DNA of 64,000 nucleotides from Escherichia coli (GTDB lineage: Bacteria; Pseudomonadota; Gammaproteobacteria; Enterobacterales; Enterobacteriaceae), in assembly GCF_013122565.1 (NCBI RefSeq), contig NZ_CP053258.1, one strand, 5' to 3'. The notes below the pieces were generated by a model. The model did no database searches. It saw only the letters and a program-made list of their open reading frames with translations, and was not told the DNA's origin. Below, one piece after another: positions 1-47,348 of the stretch. Position 1 is the first letter of the stretch, and the number at the start of each line of letters is the position of its first letter. The position numbers were made by a program, and so were the translations under genes.

Positions 1-1014
1 GTAGTGACTTTGGAGCAATTGCCTGACATTCGCGATTTAGAACGTCAACATGAGCGGGGAATTCAGCATGAAATTGAAAGAGTTAAAGCTGAACTACATC
101 GACTGAACATTGAGTTGACCAAACGTATGTCTGAAGCCAAACGTGTGGATACCGGGGCGCTCGTTGAGGCAGGGGCAGATTTGGACGATATTCCTGTTTA
201 TTTACAGCGTTTGCAGGAACTGACCGAAGAAGCCCTGCCGGAAAAGCTCAATCGCTTCCTTGATTATCTTAATCGTTCATCCGATGACGGCGTAACACAA
301 CTGCTTAGCCATATTGAGCATGAGGTGCTGGTAATTGAGGAGCGCCTCAATGAACTCAATGAAACCATGTTCAGGGTTGATTTTCAGCCGGATCGCTACC
401 TGCGTCTGGATACCAAAAAAGTTGTCCATGAAAGCCTGCGCACGCTTGAAAAAGCACAGCGTCAGCTAAATGCCGCACGATTTGTTGATGATAATGGCGA
501 GAGCCATTATAAGGCTTTGCAGGTACTGGTGGCGCAATTGCGGGATGCTTGTGAACGAAACCGTACCCTGGGAGCAAAAGCGCTACTGGATCCCCGTTTT
601 CGACTCGAGTTCGCCGTATCGGTGATGGATCGTCAGAGCGGAAATGTGATTGAGTCTCGTACCGGCTCACAGGGTGGTAGCGGCGGAGAAAAAGAGATCA
701 TCGCTTCTTACGTGTTAACAGCTTCACTTAGCTACGCACTTTGTCCTGCGGGGAGCCGTTATCCGCTTTTCGGTACCATTATCCTTGATGAAGCCTTCTC
801 CCGCAGTTCTCATGCGGTGGCGGGTAGGATCATTGCCGCGCTTAGAGAATTTGGCTTACATGCAGTATTTATCACCCCAAATAAGGAAATGCGCCTGCTG
901 CGTGACCATACTCGTTCGGCGATTGTTGTCCACCGGCGCGGTCAGAATTCCAATATGGCCTCTCTGAGCTGGGAAGAGCTTGAACGACACTACCAGCGAC
1001 GGGGGAACGCGTAG
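1..1014 (+). CDS. jetC: C-terminal fragment of an SMC-like ATPase, Wadjet JetC / MksB-like (5' end lies outside the window)
   Basis: Supplied ORF 4..1014 reads through the window start. The translation carries an ABC/SMC signature-like SGGEK, a Walker B IILDEAF and a downstream His (H-loop-like), which together look like the C-terminal head of an SMC/Rad50-type ATPase. It is immediately followed by a Toprim-type gene, the JetC-JetD order. Confidence 0.55.
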   Translation, partial: VVTLEQLPDIRDLERQHERGIQHEIERVKAELHRLNIELTKRMSEAKRVDTGALVEAGADLDDIPVYLQRLQELTEEALPEKLNRFLDYLNRSSDDGVTQLLSHIEHEVLVIEERLNELNETMFRVDFQPDRYLRLDTKKVVHESLRTLEKAQRQLNAARFVDDNGESHYKALQVLVAQLRDACERNRTLGAKALLDPRFRLEFAVSVMDRQSGNVIESRTGSQGGSGGEKEIIASYVLTASLSYALCPAGSRYPLFGTIILDEAFSRSSHAVAGRIIAALREFGLHAVFITPNKEMRLLRDHTRSAIVVHRRGQNSNMASLSWEELERHYQRRGNA

Positions 1015-1015
1015 G

Positions 1016-2164
1016 ATGTATTCCCCAGATGAATTGCGTGAAAAGCTTGCCCGGCAGTGGGATAGCGCAAAACTTCGGGCTGAACGCTTACTGTCCCCCG
1101 GTAACTGGCCGCTCTGCCTGCCTATTGGTAAACCTTCCACGAAAATATTTGCAGAGCAGACTCAGCGCGTTTTGCAGCACGTACAGCGATGGAGGCAAGT
1201 TGCGGTTGGGCACGTGGAATGGGAAGCGGTGAGTTTTCGGGCAAGTGATACACCAGTATTAATGCCGTTGCGCTGGATTCTGAATAGCCCTTCTGAGTGG
1301 ATCAACGCCGCTGCGGATCCGGTTGTGAGCCGGGAATTTCGCTTGCTGGAAGGAATTATTGAACAAGTTAATCCCATTTTTCACCCGCTGTTGGTAAAGC
1401 ATCGCTCTCTCTGGCGGCACAAAGATCCGCAGGGCGTCATCAGCGCCGCCACGCTGGCCTGCCGACTAGAGCCGGGCTGCGCAAAAGGGCTGCCGTTAAG
1501 ATTGCTTTCCGGGCAAGGAGTGGATACCAAATTTATCGAGAATAATATTTCGTTATTAACCCGACTGTTAGACGTGCGGTTTTCAGGAGAAGCCAGCGAG
1601 CAGGGATTAACAACTTTTCTTGATGCTTTTGATGAGTCCAGTCACTGGGTTTTAGTTGTACCATTATCACCCGGCTTACTTCCTTTTAAAAAATGCCGGG
1701 TAACAACGGCGGAACTGGCAGAAACAACATTACCCGCGTCGCAAGTGCTGGTGGTTGAAAATGAGCAGTGTCTGCATCATCTTCCAGCATTATCTGACAC
1801 TATCGCGATTTTAGGCTGTGGCCTGGACGTGCAATGGCTATCCAGTTCGGTTCTGGATGAAAAACGCGTTGCCTATTGGGGGGACATGGATAGCTGGGGA
1901 TTACTGATGCTGGCGAGAGCCAGGCGCTGTCGTCCGACCCTTGATGCCCTGCTCATGAACCGTGAGTTGTTTGAGCAGTATGCCAGTCATAGCGCCGTTC
2001 CAGAACCGGTCATAGCGAAGGAAGCGGTACCCGATGGCTTGCTTAACGAAGAGGCCGATTTTTATCGCTACTTAACCCGTTTACCGCGTGGTCGTCTGGA
2101 GCAGGAGTTTTTGCCAGTGGGGATTGCGGAAGAGGCGCTTCTCAGGTGGGGAAAAGAGAGTTAA
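1016..2164 (+). CDS. jetD: Wadjet JetD / MksG-like Toprim-domain protein (DUF2220-type)
   Basis: ORF 980..2164; the likely start is the ATG at 1016 (MYSPDEL), one base after the upstream stop codon. The C-terminal half has LVVENEQ and YWGDMDSWG motifs consistent with the Toprim acidic residues of JetD/MksG. About 382 aa, the typical JetD size. Confidence 0.55.
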   Translation: MYSPDELREKLARQWDSAKLRAERLLSPGNWPLCLPIGKPSTKIFAEQTQRVLQHVQRWRQVAVGHVEWEAVSFRASDTPVLMPLRWILNSPSEWINAAADPVVSREFRLLEGIIEQVNPIFHPLLVKHRSLWRHKDPQGVISAATLACRLEPGCAKGLPLRLLSGQGVDTKFIENNISLLTRLLDVRFSGEASEQGLTTFLDAFDESSHWVLVVPLSPGLLPFKKCRVTTAELAETTLPASQVLVVENEQCLHHLPALSDTIAILGCGLDVQWLSSSVLDEKRVAYWGDMDSWGLLMLARARRCRPTLDALLMNRELFEQYASHSAVPEPVIAKEAVPDGLLNEEADFYRYLTRLPRGRLEQEFLPVGIAEEALLRWGKES

Positions 2165-2520
2165 AAAAGTCATGCTTGTTCTGGAAGGTTATTTACGCGG
2201 TATTTTGGTAGTGGTTGCGAAAAGTCTGCGTTGATGGTCCTGATACCTTACCGGATAGAGGGACTTTCCATCAGTCAGTTTAGATACTGTGGCAACTGTC
2301 GCCTTTAGGTGGACAAATGCATAAATTATTAAACTATTAAATTTCTTGTTTTCTGGCGGCAGAGAGAAGGTATATCAGAGGGTACTGAGGTGTATAAAAG
2401 TCACGAACATCCGTGAAAAGGCGAAAAAACCAGCCAATAGATAATGCTTTGCAACGGCCAGAAATCTACCGTAGCCAGAAAGTGAAAAAGCCCCGCTTTG
2501 CAGCGAGGCCTTATGAATAG

Positions 2521-2596
2521 TGGTGCCCGGACTCGGAATCGAACCAAGGACACGGGGATTTTCAATCCCCTGCTCTACCGACTGAGCTATCCGGGC
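2521..2596 (-). tRNA. pheV: tRNA-Phe (anticodon GAA)
   Basis: Reverse complement reads GCCCGGATAGCTCAGTCGGTAGAGCAGGGGATTGAAAATCCCCGTGTCCTTGGTTCGATTCCGAGTCCGGGCACCA: a 76-nt cloverleaf with a GAA anticodon loop and 3' CCA. Placement next to yqgA/speC indicates pheV rather than pheU. Confidence 0.9.
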
Positions 2597-2701
2597 AACG
2601 GGGCGCATTAAACCTGATTCGCCTCGTCTCGTCAATCAAATTTCTTCAATTTACTGCAGACTGCACAATCTATCATCACTTTGCCGATATTGCACGCATT
2701 G

Positions 2702-3409
2702 TCAGGCAAACCAGGCGGTCCAGGCGGCGGAAAGCGGCATTGCCAGAAGGAGTGCTGGAAGCATGTTGACCACCGGGAACATTTTAATGCCACAGATGCG
2801 TAATCCGGTTGCCAGCAGCAATAAACCGCCTACGGCGCTGAAGTCTGCCATCATCGACGGTGTGGTCAGCGGTAATATCAGCGCGGCAGCCCATGCCAGC
2901 GTTAACTGGATGATCAGTAATGGGATACTAATTACCGACACCGCGATGCCCAAAGAGCAGGCGAAGATCATCGCCGTAAAGAAATCAAGAAATGACTTGG
3001 CGATTAAAATACTCGGATCGCCGGTCATCCCTTCGTTCATCGCCCCGAAGATCCCGGTGCCGCTGGCGCAAAACAGGACAATAATCGCCACATAATTCTG
3101 AATAAAAGATTCATGCGCTGGCGTCTTACGTGAGTGACGAAACAGATTTTGTGCTTTGGCGACTGCTGTATTGACACCTTTCTCCAGCAAACAAATTTCG
3201 CCAATTAGAGCGCCAAGTAGCGTAGCTAAAACCATCGCTGGAAGGTTGGCGCATTTCACCACCAGTAAAATACCAATCCCCAGCGATGCCAGACCAAAAA
3301 TAGATGTCATGGAGACGCGGATACGTTCCGGTAAGCGTTGGCTGAGCAGTGCGCCGAGAACGCCACCCAGTAAGACTGCACTAGCGTTGATAAAAGGGCC
3401 GATGACCAC
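2702..3409 (-). CDS. yqgA: DMT-superfamily inner membrane protein YqgA
   Basis: 235-aa hydrophobic ORF; the length and the position between pheV and speC match K-12 yqgA. Confidence 0.8.
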   Translation of the reverse strand: MVIGPFINASAVLLGGVLGALLSQRLPERIRVSMTSIFGLASLGIGILLVVKCANLPAMVLATLLGALIGEICLLEKGVNTAVAKAQNLFRHSRKTPAHESFIQNYVAIIVLFCASGTGIFGAMNEGMTGDPSILIAKSFLDFFTAMIFACSLGIAVSVISIPLLIIQLTLAWAAALILPLTTPSMMADFSAVGGLLLLATGLRICGIKMFPVVNMLPALLLAMPLSAAWTAWFA

Positions 3410-3806
3410 AAGAGTTCCTGTTAACTGTATTGTCTGATTTTCTTATTATGAACTTTTTGCCTTGTTGATGGCTTGTCTGGTCGCAAAGACCTGGCTTGCA
3501 CGCTTTAGCGAAAGGTGCCATGATTGCGCGAATTTTCTCCTCTCTGTACGGAGTTTGCCCGATGCACGCCACCTCCTTACATTCTCTCGCTTATCGCCGT
3601 TTCGCGCGAAACTCTTCTCTTTTTATGCTACTACTCATGCGGTGAAGTTAACGCACGCTCACTGCAGGACAACAGTAAAATCAGAGCGTTTCTGCTTTTA
3701 CTGATGTCTGGCGGTCGGAGCTGGTGACCAGTTTGACCCATATCTCATGGGGCAGGGTTTTCCACCTTGTCCGGTATTCTTACTTCCCCGAAACGGGTTT
3801 GCGCTT

Positions 3807-5942
3807 ATGAAATCAATGAATATTGCCGCCAGTAGTGAACTGGTATCCCGACTTTCTTCTCATCGTCGCGTGGTGGCGTTGGGAGATACTGATTTTACGG
3901 ACGTCGCGGCAGTCGTCATTACCGCTGCGGATAGTCGCAGTGGCATTCTTGCGTTGCTTAAGCGCACCGGTTTTCATCTACCGGTGTTTTTGTATTCCGA
4001 ACATGCTGTTGAATTACCTGCGGGCGTTACGGCGGTAATCAATGGCAACGAGCAGCAGTGGCTGGAGCTGGAATCCGCAGCCTGTCAGTATGAAGAGAAT
4101 TTGCTGCCTCCGTTTTATGACACGCTGACGCAGTACGTTGAGATGGGCAACAGCACCTTTGCTTGCCCTGGGCATCAACATGGTGCGTTTTTTAAAAAGC
4201 ATCCTGCCGGACGCCATTTTTACGATTTCTTTGGTGAGAACGTCTTTCGCGCCGATATGTGTAATGCTGACGTAAAATTGGGCGATCTGCTTATTCATGA
4301 AGGATCGGCGAAAGATGCGCAGAAATTCGCAGCCAAAGTCTTTCATGCCGATAAAACCTATTTTGTGCTGAACGGCACATCGGCAGCGAATAAAGTGGTG
4401 ACGAATGCGCTGTTAACGCGTGGCGATCTGGTGCTCTTCGACCGTAACAACCATAAGTCGAATCATCACGGCGCGTTGATTCAGGCGGGGGCGACGCCGG
4501 TCTATCTGGAAGCTTCACGTAACCCGTTTGGTTTCATTGGCGGTATTGATGCGCACTGTTTTAATGAAGAGTATCTGCGCCAGCAAATTCGCGACGTTGC
4601 GCCAGAAAAAGCCGACCTGCCGCGCCCGTTTCGCCTGGCGATTATTCAGCTGGGAACCTATGACGGCACTGTCTATAACGCCCGTCAGGTGATCGATACC
4701 GTTGGGCATCTGTGTGATTACATTCTGTTTGATTCCGCGTGGGTCGGTTACGAACAGTTTATCCCGATGATGGCGGATAGCTCGCCGCTGCTGTTAGAAC
4801 TTAACGAAAACGATCCGGGGATCTTTGTGACTCAGTCGGTGCACAAACAGCAGGCGGGATTCTCACAGACGTCGCAGATCCATAAAAAAGATAACCATAT
4901 CCGCGGACAGGCGCGTTTTTGCCCGCATAAGCGGTTGAATAATGCCTTTATGCTCCATGCTTCTACCAGCCCGTTCTACCCGCTGTTTGCCGCGCTGGAC
5001 GTTAACGCCAAAATTCATGAAGGGGAGAGTGGGCGTCGGCTGTGGGCTGAGTGCGTTGAGTTGGGTATTGAGTCGCGCAAGGCTATTCTTGCGCGCTGTA
5101 AGCTGTTCCGCCCGTTTATCCCGCCCGTTGTTGATGGCAAATTGTGGCAGGATTATCCGACATCAGTGTTAGCCAGTGACCGCCGTTTTTTCAGTTTTGA
5201 GCCGGGGGCGAAGTGGCACGGCTTTGAAGGATATGCCGCGGATCAGTATTTTGTTGATCCGTGCAAGCTGTTACTCACTACACCAGGTATCGATGCCGAA
5301 ACTGGCGAATATAGCGACTTTGGCGTTCCGGCGACGATTCTGGCGCACTATCTGCGTGAGAACGGCATTGTGCCGGAGAAGTGCGATCTCAACTCCATTC
5401 TGTTCTTATTAACTCCGGCGGAAAGCCACGAGAAGCTGGCACAACTGGTGGCGATGCTGGCGCAATTTGAACAGCATATTGAGGATGACTCGCCGCTGGT
5501 CGAGGTGTTGCCGAGCGTTTATAACAAGTATCCGGTGCGCTATCGCGACTACACCCTGCGCAAGTTGTGTCAGGAGATGCACGATCTGTATGTCAGTTTC
5601 GACGTCAAAGACCTACAAAAAGCGATGTTCCGCCAGCAGAGTTTCCCGTCAGTGGTGATGAACCCCCAGGATGCGCATAGCGCTTATATTCGCGGTGACG
5701 TGGAGTTGGTGCGGATTCGTGATGCCGAAGGGCGAATTGCGGCAGAAGGGGCATTGCCTTATCCACCTGGCGTGCTGTGCGTGGTGCCTGGAGAAGTATG
5801 GGGCGGGGCGGTACAGCGTTATTTCCTTGCACTGGAAGAAGGCGTGAATTTGCTACCAGGATTTTCGCCGGAGCTGCAAGGTGTTTATAGCGAAACCGAT
5901 GCGGATGGCATGAAACGGTTGTACGGTTATGTGTTGAAGTAA
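3807..5942 (+). CDS. speC: Ornithine decarboxylase, constitutive
   Basis: ORF 3747..5942; the translation from the internal ATG at 3807 (MKSMNIAASSELV...) gives the 711-aa SpeC as I recall it. Fold type I PLP decarboxylase. Confidence 0.9.
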   Translation: MKSMNIAASSELVSRLSSHRRVVALGDTDFTDVAAVVITAADSRSGILALLKRTGFHLPVFLYSEHAVELPAGVTAVINGNEQQWLELESAACQYEENLLPPFYDTLTQYVEMGNSTFACPGHQHGAFFKKHPAGRHFYDFFGENVFRADMCNADVKLGDLLIHEGSAKDAQKFAAKVFHADKTYFVLNGTSAANKVVTNALLTRGDLVLFDRNNHKSNHHGALIQAGATPVYLEASRNPFGFIGGIDAHCFNEEYLRQQIRDVAPEKADLPRPFRLAIIQLGTYDGTVYNARQVIDTVGHLCDYILFDSAWVGYEQFIPMMADSSPLLLELNENDPGIFVTQSVHKQQAGFSQTSQIHKKDNHIRGQARFCPHKRLNNAFMLHASTSPFYPLFAALDVNAKIHEGESGRRLWAECVELGIESRKAILARCKLFRPFIPPVVDGKLWQDYPTSVLASDRRFFSFEPGAKWHGFEGYAADQYFVDPCKLLLTTPGIDAETGEYSDFGVPATILAHYLRENGIVPEKCDLNSILFLLTPAESHEKLAQLVAMLAQFEQHIEDDSPLVEVLPSVYNKYPVRYRDYTLRKLCQEMHDLYVSFDVKDLQKAMFRQQSFPSVVMNPQDAHSAYIRGDVELVRIRDAEGRIAAEGALPYPPGVLCVVPGEVWGGAVQRYFLALEEGVNLLPGFSPELQGVYSETDADGMKRLYGYVLK

Positions 5943-8896: not shown

Positions 8897-9949
8897 CTAA
8901 ACCGGCGCGCCAGTGCGTAACTGCTGTAACAAACGCTCCACGGGAGCCGCCAGGCCAACTGACGGCGGTTGCGCTAAGTTATACCAGAGCGCATTGCCTT
9001 CATCCATGCAGCCGGTGAATGACGACACGGGAAGCCACATAGGCACAATATCTAAGTGGAAATGGCTGAAGGTATGGCGAAACGCGGTCAGTTGCGTCAG
9101 GTTATCGGCAGCAATCTGCCGTTGCGCCAGCCACTGCCGCAAACTTTCTTCGTCGGCAAACTGCGGGAAACAGTATAAACCGCCCCACAATCCGCTCGGC
9201 GGACGCTGCGCCAGCAATACTTCATCTTCGTGCTGTAACAGCAGAAAGTAGCCGGTGCGCTCCGGCAGCGTCTGTTTCGGTTTTTTGCCCGGATAAAGCG
9301 ACCAGCTATTATTGGCGGCGGCAATACATCCGTTTTGTAGCGGACAGAGCGAACATTTCGGCTTCGAGCGCGTACAAATCATCGCGCCCAAATCCATCAT
9401 CGCCTGATTAAACCGTTCCACGCCGACCGCGGGCGTCACCTGCTCGCTCAAACTCCATAATTTATTCTCGACCTCTTTTTTCCCAGGCCAGCCGCTTACA
9501 GCATAGCAGCGTGCCAGCACGCGTTTGACGTTACCGTCGAGAATCGGAAAGTGCTTACCCAGAGAAAGCGAGAGAATCGCGCCTGCGGTGGAACGCCCGA
9601 CGCCCGGTAACGCCGCGACTTCTTCAAAGGTTTCCGGGAATTTACCGCCGTGTAAGGTCGCCACTTGTTGTGCCGCTTTATGCAGATTGCGCGCGCGGGC
9701 GTAATAGCCAAGCCCGGTCCACAAGTGGAGAACTTCGTCCAGCGGCGCATTGGCGAGATCGGTCACCGTTGGGAAGCGCGCCATAAAGCGTTCAAAATAG
9801 GGGATAACGGTCGCAACCTGAGTTTGTTGCAACATCACTTCTGAGAGCCATACTTTGTAGGGCGTCTTGTCAATTTGCCAGGGCAGCGTTTTCCGCCCGT
9901 ATTTATCGTACCAGTCCAGAACCTGGGCTGAAAATTGCGACGCTTGCAT
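8897..9949 (-). CDS. mutY: Adenine DNA glycosylase MutY
   Basis: ORF 8897..9979 trimmed to the [14 protein letters not shown] start (350 aa); HhH-GPD motif and a C-terminal Cys cluster. Confidence 0.9.
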
Positions 9950-41689: not shown

Positions 41690-42199
41690 ATGGCGACGCT
41701 GACAGAAGATGATGTGCTTGAGCAACTGGATGCACAGGACAATTTATTTTCATTTATGAATACTGCGCATTCTATTTTGCTCCAGGGGATACGCCAGTTT
41801 CTGCCGTCGCTGTTTGTCGATAACGATGAAGAGATCGTCGAATATGCAGTGAAGCCGTTACTCGCCCAAAGCGGCCCGCTTGACGATATTGATGTTGCAC
41901 TGCGTTTGATTTATGCGCTGGGGAAAATGGATAAATGGCTGTACGCCGATATCACGCATTTTTCCCAGTTCTGGCATTACCTGAACGAACAGGATGAAAC
42001 GCCCGGATTTGCCGATGTCATGACCTGGGATTTTATCAGCAACGTCAATAGCATAACCTGCAATGCGACGCTCTATGACGCGTTGAAAGCGATGAAGTTC
42101 GCCGATTTCGCCGTCTGGTCAGAGGCGCGTTTTAGCGGAATGGTCAAAACGGCGCTGACGCTGGCAGTAACGACCACCTTAAAGGAATTAACGCCGTGA
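41690..42199 (+). CDS. yggD: MtlR-like protein YggD (FumE)
   Basis: 169-aa ORF in the conserved position. Confidence 0.8.
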   Translation: MATLTEDDVLEQLDAQDNLFSFMNTAHSILLQGIRQFLPSLFVDNDEEIVEYAVKPLLAQSGPLDDIDVALRLIYALGKMDKWLYADITHFSQFWHYLNEQDETPGFADVMTWDFISNVNSITCNATLYDALKAMKFADFAVWSEARFSGMVKTALTLAVTTTLKELTP

Positions 42200-42909
42200 A
42201 AATTGAATTAACGGTGAATGGGCTGAAGATACAGGCACAGTACCAGAACGAAGAGATTGAAAATGTACATAAACCGTTGCTGCGTATGCTGGCGGCCTTA
42301 CAGACGGTAAATCCGCAGCGGCGTACGGTGGTTTTTCTTTGCGCTCCGCCGGGGACGGGTAAATCTACCCTAACTACCTTCTGGGAATATCTCGCGCAAC
42401 AAGACCCGGAACTGCCCGCTATTCAGACGCTGCCGATGGATGGTTTTCACCATTACAATAGCTGGCTGGATGCGCATCAATTGCGCCCCTTCAAAGGCGC
42501 ACCAGAGACATTTGACGTTGCGAAACTGGCGGAAAATCTGCGCCAGGTCGTGGAAGGGGATTGTACGTGGCCGCAGTACGATCGACAAAAGCATGATCCT
42601 GTTGAAGATGCGTTGCACGTTACCGCACCACTCGTCATCGTCGAAGGAAACTGGTTGTTGCTGGACGACGAGAAGTGGTGCCAGCTAGCGCAGTTTTGTG
42701 ATTTCTCGATCTTTATCAATGCGCCAGCTACTGCGTTGCGGGAACGACTGGTGGGGCGCAAGCTGGCGGGAGGGTTATCGCTGGCAGACGCAGAAGCTTT
42801 TTATGACCGTACCGACGGGCCGAATGTTCGCCGGGTGCTGGAAGAGAGTCTGCCTGCAAATTTGACCTTAATGATGACCGCTACGGGTGAATATCGTCTG
42901 GTGGATTAA
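42196..42909 (+). CDS. yggC: P-loop nucleoside/pantothenate-kinase-like protein
   Basis: 237-aa ORF with Walker A PPGTGKST. Confidence 0.8.
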   Translation: MKIELTVNGLKIQAQYQNEEIENVHKPLLRMLAALQTVNPQRRTVVFLCAPPGTGKSTLTTFWEYLAQQDPELPAIQTLPMDGFHHYNSWLDAHQLRPFKGAPETFDVAKLAENLRQVVEGDCTWPQYDRQKHDPVEDALHVTAPLVIVEGNWLLLDDEKWCQLAQFCDFSIFINAPATALRERLVGRKLAGGLSLADAEAFYDRTDGPNVRRVLEESLPANLTLMMTATGEYRLVD

Positions 42910-43558
42910 CGTTCCTGATTAGACCATCTTCCAGTCGCACCACACGAGAGAAATGACGCCGGGTAAATGCGGCGTCATGACTGATTGCTACGACGCTCGT
43001 GCCTCGCTGGCGGCACTTCTCCAGCCAGCTTTCAAACACGCTCAACCAATTTTCGTCAAAATCCCGACTCGGCTCGTCCAGCAGCAATAGTGGCGGAGAG
43101 AGTGCTTCCAGGCAGGCGACGGCGACCATCCGTCGCTGCGCACTATGCAGATCCAACGGGTGCGCGCTGGCAGTGTCTGCTAACTGACAGCATTGCAGGG
43201 CAGCATGGGTACGTTGAGTGATTTCATCCGCCGGGCATTTTTGCAGTTTCAAACCAAATGCGATCTCGTCAGCGACGGTGCTGTGAAAAAGTTGGTTTTC
43301 CGCTTCCTGAAACAGTACGCCAACCTTTGCCGCGCGCTGGCGGTTTTTCAGGTTTTTCACCGCCTGTTGTTGCAGCATAACCGTACCGGCTGTGGGCGTA
43401 AGAAGACCTGCCATTACTCGTAACAGCGTCGATTTCCCTGCGCCATTGTCGCCGGTCAGCGCCAACCATTCACCTTGTTTGAGTTGCAGAGAAATGTCGC
43501 AAAGACAATCCGTTGCCGCGTCAGGCCAGCGATAAGTTATCTGATTTAACGTTAACAT
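42881..43558 (-). CDS. ABC-type ATPase, second ATPase of an ECF-type transporter module (accessory)
   Basis: ORF 42881..43591, probable start MLTLNQITYRW. Walker A GDNGAGKST, degenerate signature HSAQRR, Walker B LLLLDEPS. Its 3' end overlaps the yggC 3' end by 29 bp (convergent). Confidence 0.6.
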   Translation of the reverse strand: MLTLNQITYRWPDAATDCLCDISLQLKQGEWLALTGDNGAGKSTLLRVMAGLLTPTAGTVMLQQQAVKNLKNRQRAAKVGVLFQEAENQLFHSTVADEIAFGLKLQKCPADEITQRTHAALQCCQLADTASAHPLDLHSAQRRMVAVACLEALSPPLLLLDEPSRDFDENWLSVFESWLEKCRQRGTSVVAISHDAAFTRRHFSRVVRLEDGLIRNVNPPDDIHP

Positions 43559-44229
43559 AGTGGCTGGAGCGCTCCGTTTTGCAATTGCCACGCTTGCTGG
43601 CAGTAGTTCAGGAAAGGTGTGCGATGACGTTCAAAAAGAATAATCAGCGAACCACGTTCAAGCGCCCAGTGTTGTAAGCGCTGCAACAGCATTTCGCTGG
43701 CCTGCGGCGTCAGGCGGCTAAAGGCTTCATCAAGAATTAATAGCTTTGGCTGCATCGCGATAGCGCAGGCGATGACCACGCGCTGTGTCTCTCCACCGGA
43801 GAGTGTTGCCGGGTGACGATGGCGCAACGGCTGGCACTCGGTCAGAGTCAGGGCGGCATCAATCCGCGCCATAATCTCTGCTTCAGCAAGACACAGATTT
43901 TCTGGCCCAAAGGCAACTTCTTCTTCCACGCTAAAGGTACAGCCGGATAGCTGCAAATAGGGCGATTGCTGGACGAGCTGGATGGTGGCGGATTGTTCAT
44001 TAAGCGGGAGATGCCCAATGGGCGTACCGAGGAGCGTCCCCGTGCCTGTTATATCTCCTGGCAGAAAGTCCGGATACCAGCCCGCCATCAGTTGCGCCAG
44101 CGTACTTTTGCCACTGCCGTTGTCACCAAAGATGGCGACCATCCCCGGTTTGACATAGTGAAAGTCATAACAGAACGGAGGATTTGTTGAGTGTGTCGGG
44201 CAATAGCGAAACTGTTCTAACGTAACCAT
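43552..44229 (-). CDS. ABC-type ATPase, first ATPase of an ECF-type transporter module (accessory)
   Basis: 225-aa ORF with Walker A GDNGSGKST, signature LSGGETQR and Walker B LLILDEAF. Confidence 0.65.
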   Translation of the reverse strand: MVTLEQFRYCPTHSTNPPFCYDFHYVKPGMVAIFGDNGSGKSTLAQLMAGWYPDFLPGDITGTGTLLGTPIGHLPLNEQSATIQLVQQSPYLQLSGCTFSVEEEVAFGPENLCLAEAEIMARIDAALTLTECQPLRHRHPATLSGGETQRVVIACAIAMQPKLLILDEAFSRLTPQASEMLLQRLQHWALERGSLIILFERHRTPFLNYCQQAWQLQNGALQPLC

Positions 44230-44924
44230 ATCCAGGCTCCGAATTCAGCCAGCATCAGCAAGATCATGGTATAACGCGCTACGCGTTGTAGGGTGCTATC
44301 GGCTGGTGCCCACAACGTTGTTCGTCGGTTGTGGATCCGAAATGCCCGCATATCCAGCGCCGCACCGCGGACAGCCAGATCGTTAAGCGCATTGTGTGTT
44401 AGCGGAATAATTAATGCGGGCATCGCGCGTAAACGCTGATACCAGCCTTCATCAAGCGGCACGCCGCGGGCGCGCTGCGCTTCATGGATAATCGCTAATT
44501 GCCGTTTTAATTGCTCAACGACCAATAACGGCCCGGCAAACAGATAAGCGACGCCTGGCGGTAGACGAGAAGCAAACAAAGCGCGGATAAAACATTGCAC
44601 GGGGACGTACTGCATCCACAACTGTGAGGTTGAAACGATAGCCATAATGCGCAACCAGAGTGTAATGGCATACGTCCACCGTTCAGGCGAGCGTGGCGTG
44701 CCGCTAAGCCATTCTGTCAGCCAGCCACCGTGCACCAGCCACAGCCCGGCTCCCAGCGAGAACATCAGCCAGGCGACATATTTTGCCCGCCGCCGCGTGG
44801 CCTTAAGCGCGATAAGGCAGAAAAAGGTCGCCGCGCTATAGACCGGCAAAAGGGTCTGCGCGGGCAGAATAAGCGTGGTGCAGGCCGCCAGCGCCCACAG
44901 CGTTAAGGATGTAAACGGATGCAT
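44217..44924 (-). CDS. ECF transporter transmembrane (T) component, EcfT/CbiQ-like (accessory)
   Basis: 235-aa multi-pass membrane ORF of CbiQ/EcfT character; overlaps the downstream ATPase gene by 13 nt, and its start codon directly abuts the stop of the upstream S-like gene. Confidence 0.55.
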   Translation of the reverse strand: MHPFTSLTLWALAACTTLILPAQTLLPVYSAATFFCLIALKATRRRAKYVAWLMFSLGAGLWLVHGGWLTEWLSGTPRSPERWTYAITLWLRIMAIVSTSQLWMQYVPVQCFIRALFASRLPPGVAYLFAGPLLVVEQLKRQLAIIHEAQRARGVPLDEGWYQRLRAMPALIIPLTHNALNDLAVRGAALDMRAFRIHNRRTTLWAPADSTLQRVARYTMILLMLAEFGAWIWLR

Positions 44925-45503
44925 TTAGCGCACGGCAGCCATTGCCGGAAAATGGCGCGTGGTGCGAATCGGTAGCTGTCGCAGTAAAAGCCAGACAATC
45001 ACCGCTGTAAGAATTTTATCGACCAGGTTTGCGCCTATCACCGTAATCGCCACCGACTCCAACAGGTTTTGCCCCATCGAGTGCATCCAGGCAACGAACA
45101 AATCGGCTCCGCTACCGGTGACACCGCCGAACAGCGCAGTACGCAGCGGTACAGCGACGACCGTTACCGCAAGCGTAATAATCACGCCGCTGACAACGAC
45201 TTTTGGCAGGGTGCGGAACCAACCCGCTCGCGCCAGCCAACCAGCGACCAGGCCTATGACCATCGCGACGGGCGTAAATGCGGCGGCGATCGGGTCGGTC
45301 AGCAATCCCCAAAGTAAATTGGTCAGTAAGCCGGTCAGCATCCCGATCACCGGACCAAGCAGTACCGCGCTAATAAGTGTGCCGATGGAATCGAGAAATA
45401 TAGGTAATTTGACCATGCTGGCCAGTTGCCCGCCGATCATATTGATGGCGATAGATATAACGATTAACACCAGCGCCTGACTGGAAAAGTGGCGACGCGC
45501 CAT
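44925..45503 (-). CDS. Probable ECF transporter substrate-capture (S) component, substrate unknown (accessory)
   Basis: ORF 44925..45602 trimmed to MARRHFSSQALVLIV (GAGAGG ribosome-binding site upstream), giving a roughly 192-aa protein with about six hydrophobic helices, the size and topology typical of S components. Confidence 0.5.
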   Translation of the reverse strand: MARRHFSSQALVLIVISIAINMIGGQLASMVKLPIFLDSIGTLISAVLLGPVIGMLTGLLTNLLWGLLTDPIAAAFTPVAMVIGLVAGWLARAGWFRTLPKVVVSGVIITLAVTVVAVPLRTALFGGVTGSGADLFVAWMHSMGQNLLESVAITVIGANLVDKILTAVIVWLLLRQLPIRTTRHFPAMAAVR

Positions 45504-45525
45504 ATGAAAACCTCTCTGAAAATAG

Positions 45526-45957
45526 TTATTTAACGGGGGAAATATGCAACTCGTCGTAACCAGAAAGCGCGCAAGGCTGGCGGCTAAACGCCAGTTCCTC
45601 AAGGCAGCCGATCACCAGTTCAAGCGTGGTCCGCACGGTACAGCCGGGCATCATATGACCGCCAAGCATCGTGCCGTGTGGATCGGAAACGCAGAGATGA
45701 AGATGTTCACCACTCTGTTCCAGCGTGCCGTTCAATGCGATGACTTCGAACTTACCGCTTAGTAGGGCCGTGTTTTCTTGCCCGGCATAGCGTAAGGCGA
45801 CGTCAGTCAGACTGCCGGTACAACCTGCAATCCACGCGGCGTGGAGTTGTTGTTGCTGCGCGAAGGCGCGCAATAGGGAGAGAACTTCCTGCCCGGGGAG
45901 CAGGCGCAGCGCGTAAAAGCGTGCGGAGGAAGAATATAGGTAGGGCAATGCCATCAT
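45526..45957 (-). CDS. DUF296 / PPC-domain protein (accessory), first gene of the operon
   Basis: 143-aa ORF; the motif order GKFEVIALNG ... HLHLCVSDPHGTMLGGHMMPG ... TTLELVIG parallels the PPC (DUF296) domain as I know it from plant AHL proteins and bacterial homologues. Confidence 0.5.
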   Translation of the reverse strand: MMALPYLYSSSARFYALRLLPGQEVLSLLRAFAQQQQLHAAWIAGCTGSLTDVALRYAGQENTALLSGKFEVIALNGTLEQSGEHLHLCVSDPHGTMLGGHMMPGCTVRTTLELVIGCLEELAFSRQPCALSGYDELHISPVK

Positions 45958-46328
45958 TGGAGTACTCCGAAACTCGGACGTATTGCGGATAATATCGACG
46001 CTGCATCAGTCATATTCTGATATAAGTCAGGGTTTGTGACGGCACAACGAAAAGATTTTGCTACGCTTATTCGTGATTCTGCAAAGTGGAATAAATTCCA
46101 CAGGGGCGGGGCTGAAAACGTGACGTAAGTCAGATAATTGTCTTCTTTGACTGGACAATCATTCCTTTTATTCCATGTTTCGCTTATCCTAGCTGAAGCG
46201 TTTCAGTCGATTAAATGTTCGACAATTAACCAATCAGTCGCAGTTTGCGACAGGTAAGGTTTCCCCGGACGATTTGCTGGATTACTCTGTCTGGCAAATT
46301 TGCTCAGGGAAAACCTTGCAGGAGATCT

Positions 46329-47348
46329 ATGACCGTACGCGTAGCGATAAATGGCTTCGGTCGCATCGGGCGTAATGTGGTTCGTGCTTTGTATGAATCC
46401 GGACGCCGGGCGGAAATTACCGTGGTGGCAATCAACGAACTGGCGGATGCTGCGGGCATGGCGCATTTGTTGAAATATGACACCAGCCATGGCCGTTTTG
46501 CATGGGAAGTACGACAGGAACGCGATCAGCTTTTTGTTGGTGATGACGCCATCCGCGTATTGCATGAACGTTCACTGCAATCGCTCCCCTGGCGTGAACT
46601 TGGCGTTGATGTAGTCCTCGACTGCACCGGCGTATATGGCTCCCGCGAGCATGGCGAAGCGCATATTGCCGCCGGGGCCAAAAAAGTGCTCTTTTCACAT
46701 CCTGGCAGTAACGATCTCGACGCGACCGTTGTTTACGGCGTCAATCAGGATCAACTTCGTGCGGAACACCGCATCGTTTCTAACGCTTCCTGTACCACGA
46801 ATTGCATAATTCCCGTCATCAAATTGTTAGATGATGCGTACGGTATTGAGTCCGGCACTGTGACCACAATTCACTCCGCCATGCACGATCAACAGGTTAT
46901 TGATGCATACCATCCTGACCTGCGTCGCACCCGGGCAGCCAGCCAGTCGATCATTCCGGTCGATACTAAACTGGCCGCCGGTATCACACGATTTTTTCCG
47001 CAATTTAACGATCGCTTTGAAGCGATTGCGGTACGTGTGCCAACCATAAATGTGACGGCAATCGATTTAAGCGTGACGGTGAAGAAACCTGTAAAAGCCA
47101 ATGAAGTCAACCTGTTGCTGCAAAAAGCAGCACAAGGTGCATTTCATGGTATAGTTGACTATACGGAATTGCCGTTGGTCTCTGTAGATTTTAACCACGA
47201 TCCGCACAGTGCCATTGTCGATGGCACCCAAACCCGGGTCAGTGGCGCACACCTGATCAAAACGTTGGTCTGGTGCGATAACGAATGGGGCTTTGCTAAC
47301 CGAATGCTCGACACGACGTTAGCTATGGCTACTGTTGCTTTCAGGTAA
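46329..47348 (+). CDS. epd: D-erythrose-4-phosphate dehydrogenase
   Basis: ORF 46245..47348 trimmed to [15 protein letters not shown] (339 aa); GAPDH family. Confidence 0.9.

Follow-up and report, generated by a model that had tools for sequence, protein, structure and literature searches.

The closest described counterpart of the locus considered here is O-island 119 of Escherichia coli O157:H7 EDL933, a block of 3.12 kb with five genes, in which the product of z4267, a DUF296 'putative DNA-binding protein', has been named LmiA, the products of z4268 and z4269 are hypothetical proteins, and z4270 and z4271 encode ABC ATPases (Liu et al., 2020, PMC7667037). Expression of lmiA is activated by PhoP at low magnesium, LmiA in turn binds the ler promoter, and its residues His85, His87 and His101 have been proposed as zinc ligands (PMC7667037). 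LmiA has also been reported to activate gadA and gadBC and to repress biofilm genes (Sun et al., 2024, PMC11657066). In this work we analysed a stretch of 64,000 nucleotides of E. coli DNA (NCBI RefSeq assembly GCF_013122565.1, contig NZ_CP053258.1), hereafter the window, which carries five minus-strand genes at 42881-45957, between yggC and epd. This operon is O-island 119 (z4267-z4271) and is already known rather than new. The same five genes occupy the same site in O157:H7 genomes, the three published promoter motifs of lmiA match the window exactly, and the numbering of His85, His87 and His101 is identical in the window protein. The window allele is, however, somewhat divergent, since its operon DNA is 95.8% identical to that of O157:H7 and at most 96.6% identical to that of any of 5426 complete E. 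coli genomes.

The operon is also found in Salmonella as STM3071-STM3075, and the structure of its PCC (DUF296) orthologue has been solved (PDB 2HX0/2NMU). For the E. coli genes, RefSeq uses the names 'ECF transporter S component', 'energy-coupling factor transporter transmembrane component T' and 'PPC domain-containing DNA-binding protein', where ECF stands for energy-coupling factor. The island, its gene content and a function of lmiA are published, and the ECF parts have been named. Group-I (dedicated) ECF transporters, a class reportedly set out by Rodionov et al. in 2009, include BioMNY, CbiMNQO and QrtTUVW. As in the operon studied here, these systems encode S, T and two ATPases together, lack a periplasmic binding protein and carry Ala-Arg-Gly motifs in T, but they differ from it in that the present family has a conserved fifth, soluble PCC protein, an ATP site that is degenerate family-wide, and short ATPases (225 amino acids). 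A further relative is QrtT of C. difficile (CD1683), a PF12822 S component encoded in a queK(nucleoside hydrolase)-qrtT-queL operon, which moves preQ1, queuine and queuosine. The C. difficile operon differs in that a preQ1 riboswitch governs it and its ECF module is shared; the module studied here is dedicated, no riboswitch accompanies it and, in enterobacteria, the PCC gene takes the place of the hydrolase. Literature searches on DUF296 with ECF, CD3073, QrtTUVW and STY3230 returned nothing useful.

Several aspects of the locus emerge from the present comparison. The arrangement PCC-S-T-A-A', in which A and A' are the two ATPases, is conserved across phyla, distant S homologues are encoded next to nucleoside hydrolase and ribokinase genes, and the PCC protein retains an invariant set of three histidines, Glu and Arg; these results are new here. 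Moreover, whereas the two published studies view the island as horizontally acquired (PMC7667037; PMC11657066), our comparison points to an ancestral locus that was lost in K-12. We propose that O-island 119 is one ancestral operon that combines LmiA with a dedicated group-I ECF importer, probably for a ribosylated cargo, and that LmiA is a ligand-linked partner of this importer. Taken as a whole, this is the account that we favour on balance.

The ECF module and its probable PCC partner

In the order of transcription the operon consists of the PCC gene, which is the lmiA (z4267) orthologue (45526-45957, 143 amino acids), the genes for the S component (z4268 orthologue, 44925-45503, 192 amino acids) and the T component (z4269 orthologue, 44217-44924, 235 amino acids), and those for the ABC ATPases A1 (z4270 orthologue, 43552-44229, 225 amino acids) and A2 (z4271 orthologue, 42881-43558, 225 amino acids). 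Successive genes are separated by a 22-bp gap and by 0 bp and then overlap by 13 bp and 7 bp. The A2 start is that used by RefSeq for E. coli CM2, and a GTG at 43591 marks a possible upstream extension of the open reading frame (ORF). An earlier note on this DNA, made from the sequence alone, had described five co-directional minus-strand genes with spacing of 22 bp or less, encoding a DUF296 protein, an S-like and a T component and two ABC ATPases. All of these ORFs are indeed present between 42881 and 45957, and the family matches hold in Pfam, NCBIfam and structure profile searches; we also agree with the note that the sequence does not reveal the substrate. Comparison with E. coli CM2 shows purifying selection on each of the five genes (Ka/Ks 0.06-0.32).

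The S component matches PF12822 (E 1.2e-8), which is the sole Pfam family it matches, and its top NCBIfam match, over the full length, is NF045596, 'CD3073 family putative ECF transporter S component' (E 1e-39). A profile made from 20 members of the S family matches solved folate (FolT) S components (2e-8). On its own, T gives a weak match to the CbiQ family PF02361 (1.7e-4) and only noise when searched as a single sequence against solved structures. A profile from 20 T orthologues matches the solved EcfT chains 4HUQ_T, 4HZU_T and 5D3M_D over their full length (4.5e-29 to 7e-26), whereas the same profile reaches an E value of just 0.14 against the solved cobalt CbiQ, and the coupling motif Ala-Gln-x-x-Arg-Gly (A149/Q150/R153/G154) is invariant in the alignment of the 20 orthologues. 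For both ATPases the best matches are the ECF ATPase models TIGR04520/TIGR04521, though below the equivalog cutoffs; A2 is closest to TIGR04521 (4e-44). The signature of A1 is the canonical LSGGE, with LSGGE/Q kept across homologues, and that of A2 is degenerate, being LHSAQ here and LHAGQ, LHTAQ, LSPTW and others elsewhere in the family (loci L008-L087, cited by our own locus numbers). The transporter would therefore have one consensus and one degenerate ATP site. The operon thus has the make-up of a group-I ECF transporter, with an ECF-fold S, an EcfT-like T and two EcfA/CbiO-type ATPases encoded together and no solute-binding protein.

Gene fusions in other genomes join these parts. Single proteins of about 690 amino acids that unite T, A1 and A2 occur in Synergistaceae and on a metagenome contig (L040 6648-8747, L049 8568-10640, L050 8592-10664, L004 1820-3874), an S-T-A1-A2 fusion of 910 amino acids is found at L045 4396-7128, and S-T fusions have about 470-490 amino acids (P0270, P0288, P0292, P0294). 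Because the four components are joined elsewhere, we regard S, T, A1 and A2 as one machine. By analogy with the general ECF mechanism, S would bind a scarce organic nutrient outside the cell and topple against the T scaffold so that the nutrient is released inside, and the A1/A2 heterodimer, with its one canonical and one degenerate ATP site, would reset the cycle.

Several observations on individual components may be recorded here. Homologues of S are joined to histidine-kinase domains in P0345 (935 amino acids), P0359 (569 amino acids) and P0353 (447 amino acids), where this fold seems to have taken on a second use, that of a sensor in the membrane. The metagenome contig L004 carries, at 603-4940, a PCC gene, two tandem S paralogues and the fused T-A1-A2 gene, with a third S paralogue just downstream. 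In-frame stops are present in A1 of E. albertii NBRC 107761 (L008, about 9737-9749) and in S of S. enterica diarizonae CCUG 30040T (L016, about 562-565), and could be signs that the transporter is decaying in some lineages, or else errors of sequencing. In the window itself, the T gene (44217-44924) has a Ks of 0.29 against E. coli CM2, compared with 0.04-0.08 for the other four genes, and its identity to other E. coli is 92-93% in 250-bp windows, while Ka/Ks is still 0.06; it looks like an old recombinant allele.

The PCC protein matches PF03479 (E 2.3e-26) and no other Pfam family. Its association with the transporter was followed by a profile scan for the S component with one genome per species, which gave 80 loci in which ORFs were called and searched with the five proteins of the window operon. 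Of these loci, 64 contain a PCC gene, and in 51 it is the gene directly upstream of S; several of the loci without a PCC match are truncated contigs, and the called PCC and S ORFs often abut or overlap. The co-occurrence of DUF296 with ECF genes, which the earlier note had seen in one genome, is therefore found across phyla. The order PCC-S-T-A-A' is kept in Enterobacterales, Aeromonas, Laribacter, Wohlfahrtiimonas, Pseudomonas entomophila, Rhizobiales, Paracoccus, Desulfobulbaceae, Synergistaceae and Chloroflexi.

In the 63 ECF-linked PCC proteins the residues R18, P21, G48, S49, R56, A58, E71, G77, H85, H87, G95, H101, T110, T111, E113, R126 and E136 are invariant, and D92 and Y134 are nearly so. 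The AlphaFold model of LmiA, computed with 27 homologues, has a pLDDT of 96.3. LmiA is acidic (pI 5.8, net charge -4), and neither an AT-hook (RGRP) nor a helix-turn-helix was found in this single-domain protein of 143 amino acids. It keeps an invariant set of three histidines (His3), Glu and Arg and resembles the Zn-dependent alpha-acetolactate decarboxylase (PDB 4BT2, 6INB), although PCC is half the size and its Pfam membership is PCC only. A likeness of PCC to tRNA adenosine deaminase was set aside as a chance match, the PDB hit being weak (E 0.009, and 0.22 with a profile). Taken together, the invariant polar set, the acidity and the missing AT-hook would be more in keeping with a site for a small molecule or a metal than with a DNA-binding surface of the classical kind.

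As we envisage it, LmiA, a PCC protein of trimeric fold with a His3 site, would be a fifth member that this transporter family has conserved as a partner. The Zn-type His3/Glu/Arg site is where it probably binds or processes what the transporter brings in, or a product of that compound, and its DNA-binding role in enterohaemorrhagic E. coli (EHEC), that is the activation of ler and gad, may have arisen as an output of this ligand-linked function or by its later co-option. Regulation of LEE (the locus of enterocyte effacement) by LmiA does not apply to bacteria that have no LEE. To our knowledge, the LEE is not known in most of the lineages that carry the PCC-ECF cluster, which are mostly environmental or commensal, and thus LEE regulation would not be the basic role of the family. 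A stronger claim, to which we give only a low probability, is that LmiA-type PCC proteins in general are not primarily DNA-binding regulators but Zn-dependent ligand-binding or catalytic partners of dedicated ECF importers that span several phyla and take up ribosylated compounds, nucleosides among them. The virulence role in EHEC would then be a recent co-option, through which the expression of LEE and gad would follow the availability of that metabolite in the gut.

Origin of the presence/absence polymorphism

The operon occupies this site in 3319-3328 of the 5426 complete E. coli genomes (61%), including O157:H7, CFT073 and APEC O78. In the K-12 derivative DH1, yggC is followed directly by epd with no operon between them, in agreement with the earlier note, which had held the operon to be absent from K-12. 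The statement that E. coli lacks ECF modules is thus true of K-12, but not of most strains. Outside E. coli, homologues of the operon are found in Salmonella, Citrobacter, Klebsiella, Proteus, Aeromonas, beta- and alpha-proteobacteria, Synergistaceae and Chloroflexi.

The earlier note went on to describe the operon as inserted between yggC and epd, and this is not borne out by the comparison with other genera. The epd gene adjoins the operon in E. albertii, Citrobacter, Atlantibacter, Klebsiella michiganensis, Pseudescherichia, Superficieibacter and Phytobacter, and a convergent yggC with a similar overlap is present at the far end in E. albertii, four Citrobacter loci, S. enterica diarizonae, Superficieibacter and Phytobacter, so that the complete epd-operon-yggC order is shared by E. 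albertii, Citrobacter, Superficieibacter and Phytobacter. One Salmonella locus was examined, and its DNA begins 148 bp upstream of S, short of the epd side. Likewise, the 29 bp shared by the A2 3' end and the convergent yggC 3' end (42881-42909) are real, but are not the abrupt insertion junction for which they had been taken, as the overlap is conserved across genera and the left breakpoint lies inside yggC, at about 42660.

It is from this point that the window diverges from DH1, and the divergence ends at about 46084. The 3' third of yggC (42660-42909, plus strand) is therefore part of one presence/absence haplotype together with the operon. Over its first 155 residues YggC of the window is 99% identical to that of K-12, but over the last 82 residues just 65%; in this C-terminal part the E. 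albertii protein is 95% identical to the window type and 65% to the K-12 type. Within E. coli, two deeply diverged yggC 3' alleles (65% amino acid identity) track the presence and absence of the operon (window 42660-42909 compared with L002 2660-2910). Since the K-12 allele is equally far from E. albertii and Citrobacter, it was probably imported from another genus.

Signs of a mobile island were looked for at the locus, and neither flanking or notable inverted repeats nor insertion sequence (IS) elements nor an integrase were found. The GC content of the operon (0.52-0.59) resembles that of the left flank, with no compositional break. Insertion by a mobile element is rejected in view of the missing flanking repeats, IS elements and compositional break, together with the same locus in other genera. 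Because those genera share the arrangement, and because the YggC C-terminus matches E. albertii and not K-12, the sequence comparison indicates that the operon-bearing haplotype is ancestral, and that in the K-12 type a foreign segment has replaced it, an event that would have removed the operon and swapped the last 82 codons of yggC. This suggests that the description 'horizontally acquired virulence island' should become 'ancestral locus lost in K-12-type strains'. The wider neighbourhood in the window comprises yggP, the glpX-type yggF, fumE and yggC on the left flank and epd, pgk and fbaA on the right.

The cargo and the role of LmiA

No other ECF-type transporter is widespread in E. coli and Salmonella, and the cargo of this one may be the signal behind the LmiA-dependent control of virulence and acid resistance. 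Neighbouring genes offer clues. In 20 loci (Chloroflexi, Kaistia) a gene for a RihA/RihC-type nucleoside hydrolase lies directly upstream of S; a ribokinase gene precedes the hydrolase in nine of these, and a PCC gene is nearby in 11. Genes of ribose/allose-type ABC systems flank the cluster in three loci, namely in Desulfosediminicola, Brucella gallinifaecis and one Synergistaceae genome. Because of these hydrolase, ribokinase and ribose-ABC neighbours a ribosylated or nucleoside-like cargo is favoured, queuosine-type compounds being one possibility, and cobalt is unlikely because there is no CbiM or CbiN, S is of the vitamin type and T is closer to EcfT than to CbiQ. The cargo is thus probably a ribosylated or nucleoside-like compound and not cobalt. 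In eight Chloroflexi loci a gene resembling the C-terminal half of the selenium-metabolism protein YedF (131-141 amino acids) recurs beside the cluster (e.g., L054 7131-7556, L041 11151-11546), and at L041 a gene of the D-cysteine desulfhydrase family is also nearby; the YedF-like neighbour could indicate a link to sulfur or selenium.

Import of Co2+ or another transition metal, with LmiA as a metal sensor or chaperone, is suggested by a thesis on STM3071, as far as it is relayed in PMC11481890, and by an older annotation as 'cobalt transport'. The placing of T and the ATPases in CbiQ/CbiO Pfam and TIGR families would agree with it, as would the metal-type His3 site of LmiA and a heavy-metal P-type ATPase gene downstream of the cluster in two Synergistaceae loci. 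Nevertheless, the operon contains no CbiM/NikM or CbiN/NikN and no extra small membrane ORF, its S belongs to PF12822, the T profile prefers EcfT to CbiQ (4.5e-29 against 0.14), neither the window nor 18 homologous loci have a cobalamin or metal riboswitch, and the recurrent neighbours encode nucleoside hydrolase and ribokinase. We consider a metal importer very improbable, and a cobalt transporter in particular is rejected in view of the missing CbiM/CbiN and the preference of the T profile. A transporter of the QrtT type, salvaging queuosine, queuine or preQ1, is only a little more credible to us and still unlikely. It would share a PF12822 S component with this operon, and a nucleoside hydrolase adjoins the distant S homologues in the 20 loci described above. 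Salmonella orthologues are presumably labelled 'queuosine-regulated ECF transporter QrtTUVW' in SEED/TCDB. However, no preQ1 riboswitch is present in the window or in the 18 homologous loci, neither tgt nor queL nor other queuosine genes recur among the neighbours, and the ribokinase and ribose-type ABC neighbours suggest a catabolic use of ribose.

A serious rival is that LmiA is a plain transcription factor of the locus, acting on the transporter operon and, in EHEC, on ler and gad, with a His3 site that is structural; the linkage of PCC to ECF genes would then simply pair a regulator with its target. Electrophoretic mobility shift assays, DNase footprinting and chromatin immunoprecipitation with quantitative PCR place LmiA on PLEE1 and on the gadA and gadBC promoters (PMC7667037, PMC11657066). 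In addition, lmiA is the first gene of the operon, a TCCGA-N3-TCGGA repeat between promoter and start codon could be an operator, and the orthologue from S. bongori is labelled 'putative regulator of transporter operon' in one database. Set against this, LmiA is acidic and lacks both an AT-hook and a helix-turn-helix, the called ORFs of PCC and S abut or overlap in many taxa, and the invariant polar set together with the acetolactate-decarboxylase-like fold points to a small-molecule site. The DNA-binding label of the PPC family stems from plant proteins, in which the AT-hook and not the PPC domain contacts DNA. The published 17-bp LmiA (LEE1) motif has no match with up to three mismatches anywhere in the window, and for this motif an LmiA operator in the operon's own promoter is rejected. 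We give the plain-regulator explanation more weight than either transport alternative, but doubt that it is correct.

Several points weigh against the ligand-linked reading that we prefer. The specific DNA binding of LmiA (PMC7667037) leaves the plain transcription-factor role experimentally better grounded, and deletion of z4268-z4271 in O157:H7 had no adherence or LEE phenotype (PMC7667037), so that LmiA and the transporter are separable in these respects. The match of S to NF045596, at 136.1 bits, is below the curated cutoff of 180 bits, and S therefore belongs to a related subfamily and is not an NF045596 equivalog. In the 20 loci with a nucleoside hydrolase, S is only a distant homologue of the window S (40-47% identical), and the enterobacterial operons themselves contain no gene for a nucleoside hydrolase or a ribokinase. 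The PCC-ECF linkage, the hydrolase and ribokinase neighbours and the His3 site provide concrete hypotheses, which are testable leads rather than proof. In our view the best synthesis is nonetheless that LmiA works alongside the transporter as its ligand-linked partner, and that the regulatory output of LmiA was recruited to the control of virulence in EHEC.

Promoter region and leader of lmiA

Upstream of lmiA, on the minus strand, the published PhoP footprint CTTACGTCACGTTTTCAGC (46111-46129), the -35 element TTGCAG (46079-46084) and the -10 element TAGCAAAAT (46055-46063) are each exact matches to those reported (PMC7667037), and the published distances place the transcription start site (TSS) near 46047. 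A simple sigma-70 scan of the intergenic region found no promoter. When the upstream regions of 11 enterobacterial genera were aligned, three conserved blocks were seen downstream of the published TSS, all on the minus strand in the window. The block nearest the TSS is a putative FNR/CRP-like palindrome, CTGAC-N4-ATCAG (46017-46030), which reads CTGAT-N4-ATCAG in Citrobacter, Klebsiella, Atlantibacter and Superficieibacter, has near variants in Enterobacter and Pseudescherichia, and fits eight of the ten FNR consensus positions in most genera. A predicted -10-like hexamer, TATTAT (45989-45994), lies 22 bp downstream of it, which puts the centre of the palindrome at about -41.5 relative to the predicted second start. 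Expression of lmiA is PhoP-dependent, as published, and is probably also induced anaerobically through the conserved FNR-like site. The palindrome would fit the report that the Salmonella orthologues are anaerobically activated. On the other hand, its half-sites start with C and not with T, and because the published TSS lies upstream of the FNR-like site the second promoter is predicted only.

The third conserved block is the inverted repeat TCCGA-GTT-TCGGA (45966-45978), which overlaps the GGAG ribosome-binding site and shows one compensatory variant, TCCGG/CCGGA, in Superficieibacter. This repeat could be an operator or a hairpin that masks the Shine-Dalgarno sequence. A riboswitch upstream of the operon on the minus strand, for which the earlier note had proposed a scan, was not found: an Rfam scan of 42000-47000 (E of 1 or less) gave a chance snoRNA match only, scans of the 18 homologous loci at gathering thresholds showed no riboswitch upstream of the operons, and the 103-nt leader folds no better than its shuffled versions (z -1.1). 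On the strength of these scans and the unremarkable fold, a riboswitch in the leader is rejected. In Kaistia terrae a Guanidine-II riboswitch (L047 6225-6269) is located about 1.2 kb upstream of the PCC-ECF cluster on the same strand, and is probably unrelated to the transporter.

A further element, CTGACTTACGTCAC, at 46111-46140, overlaps the PhoP footprint. It is partly kept upstream of epd in K-12, and in other genera has the form CTGAT-N4-ATCAC; it may serve the divergent epd promoter too.

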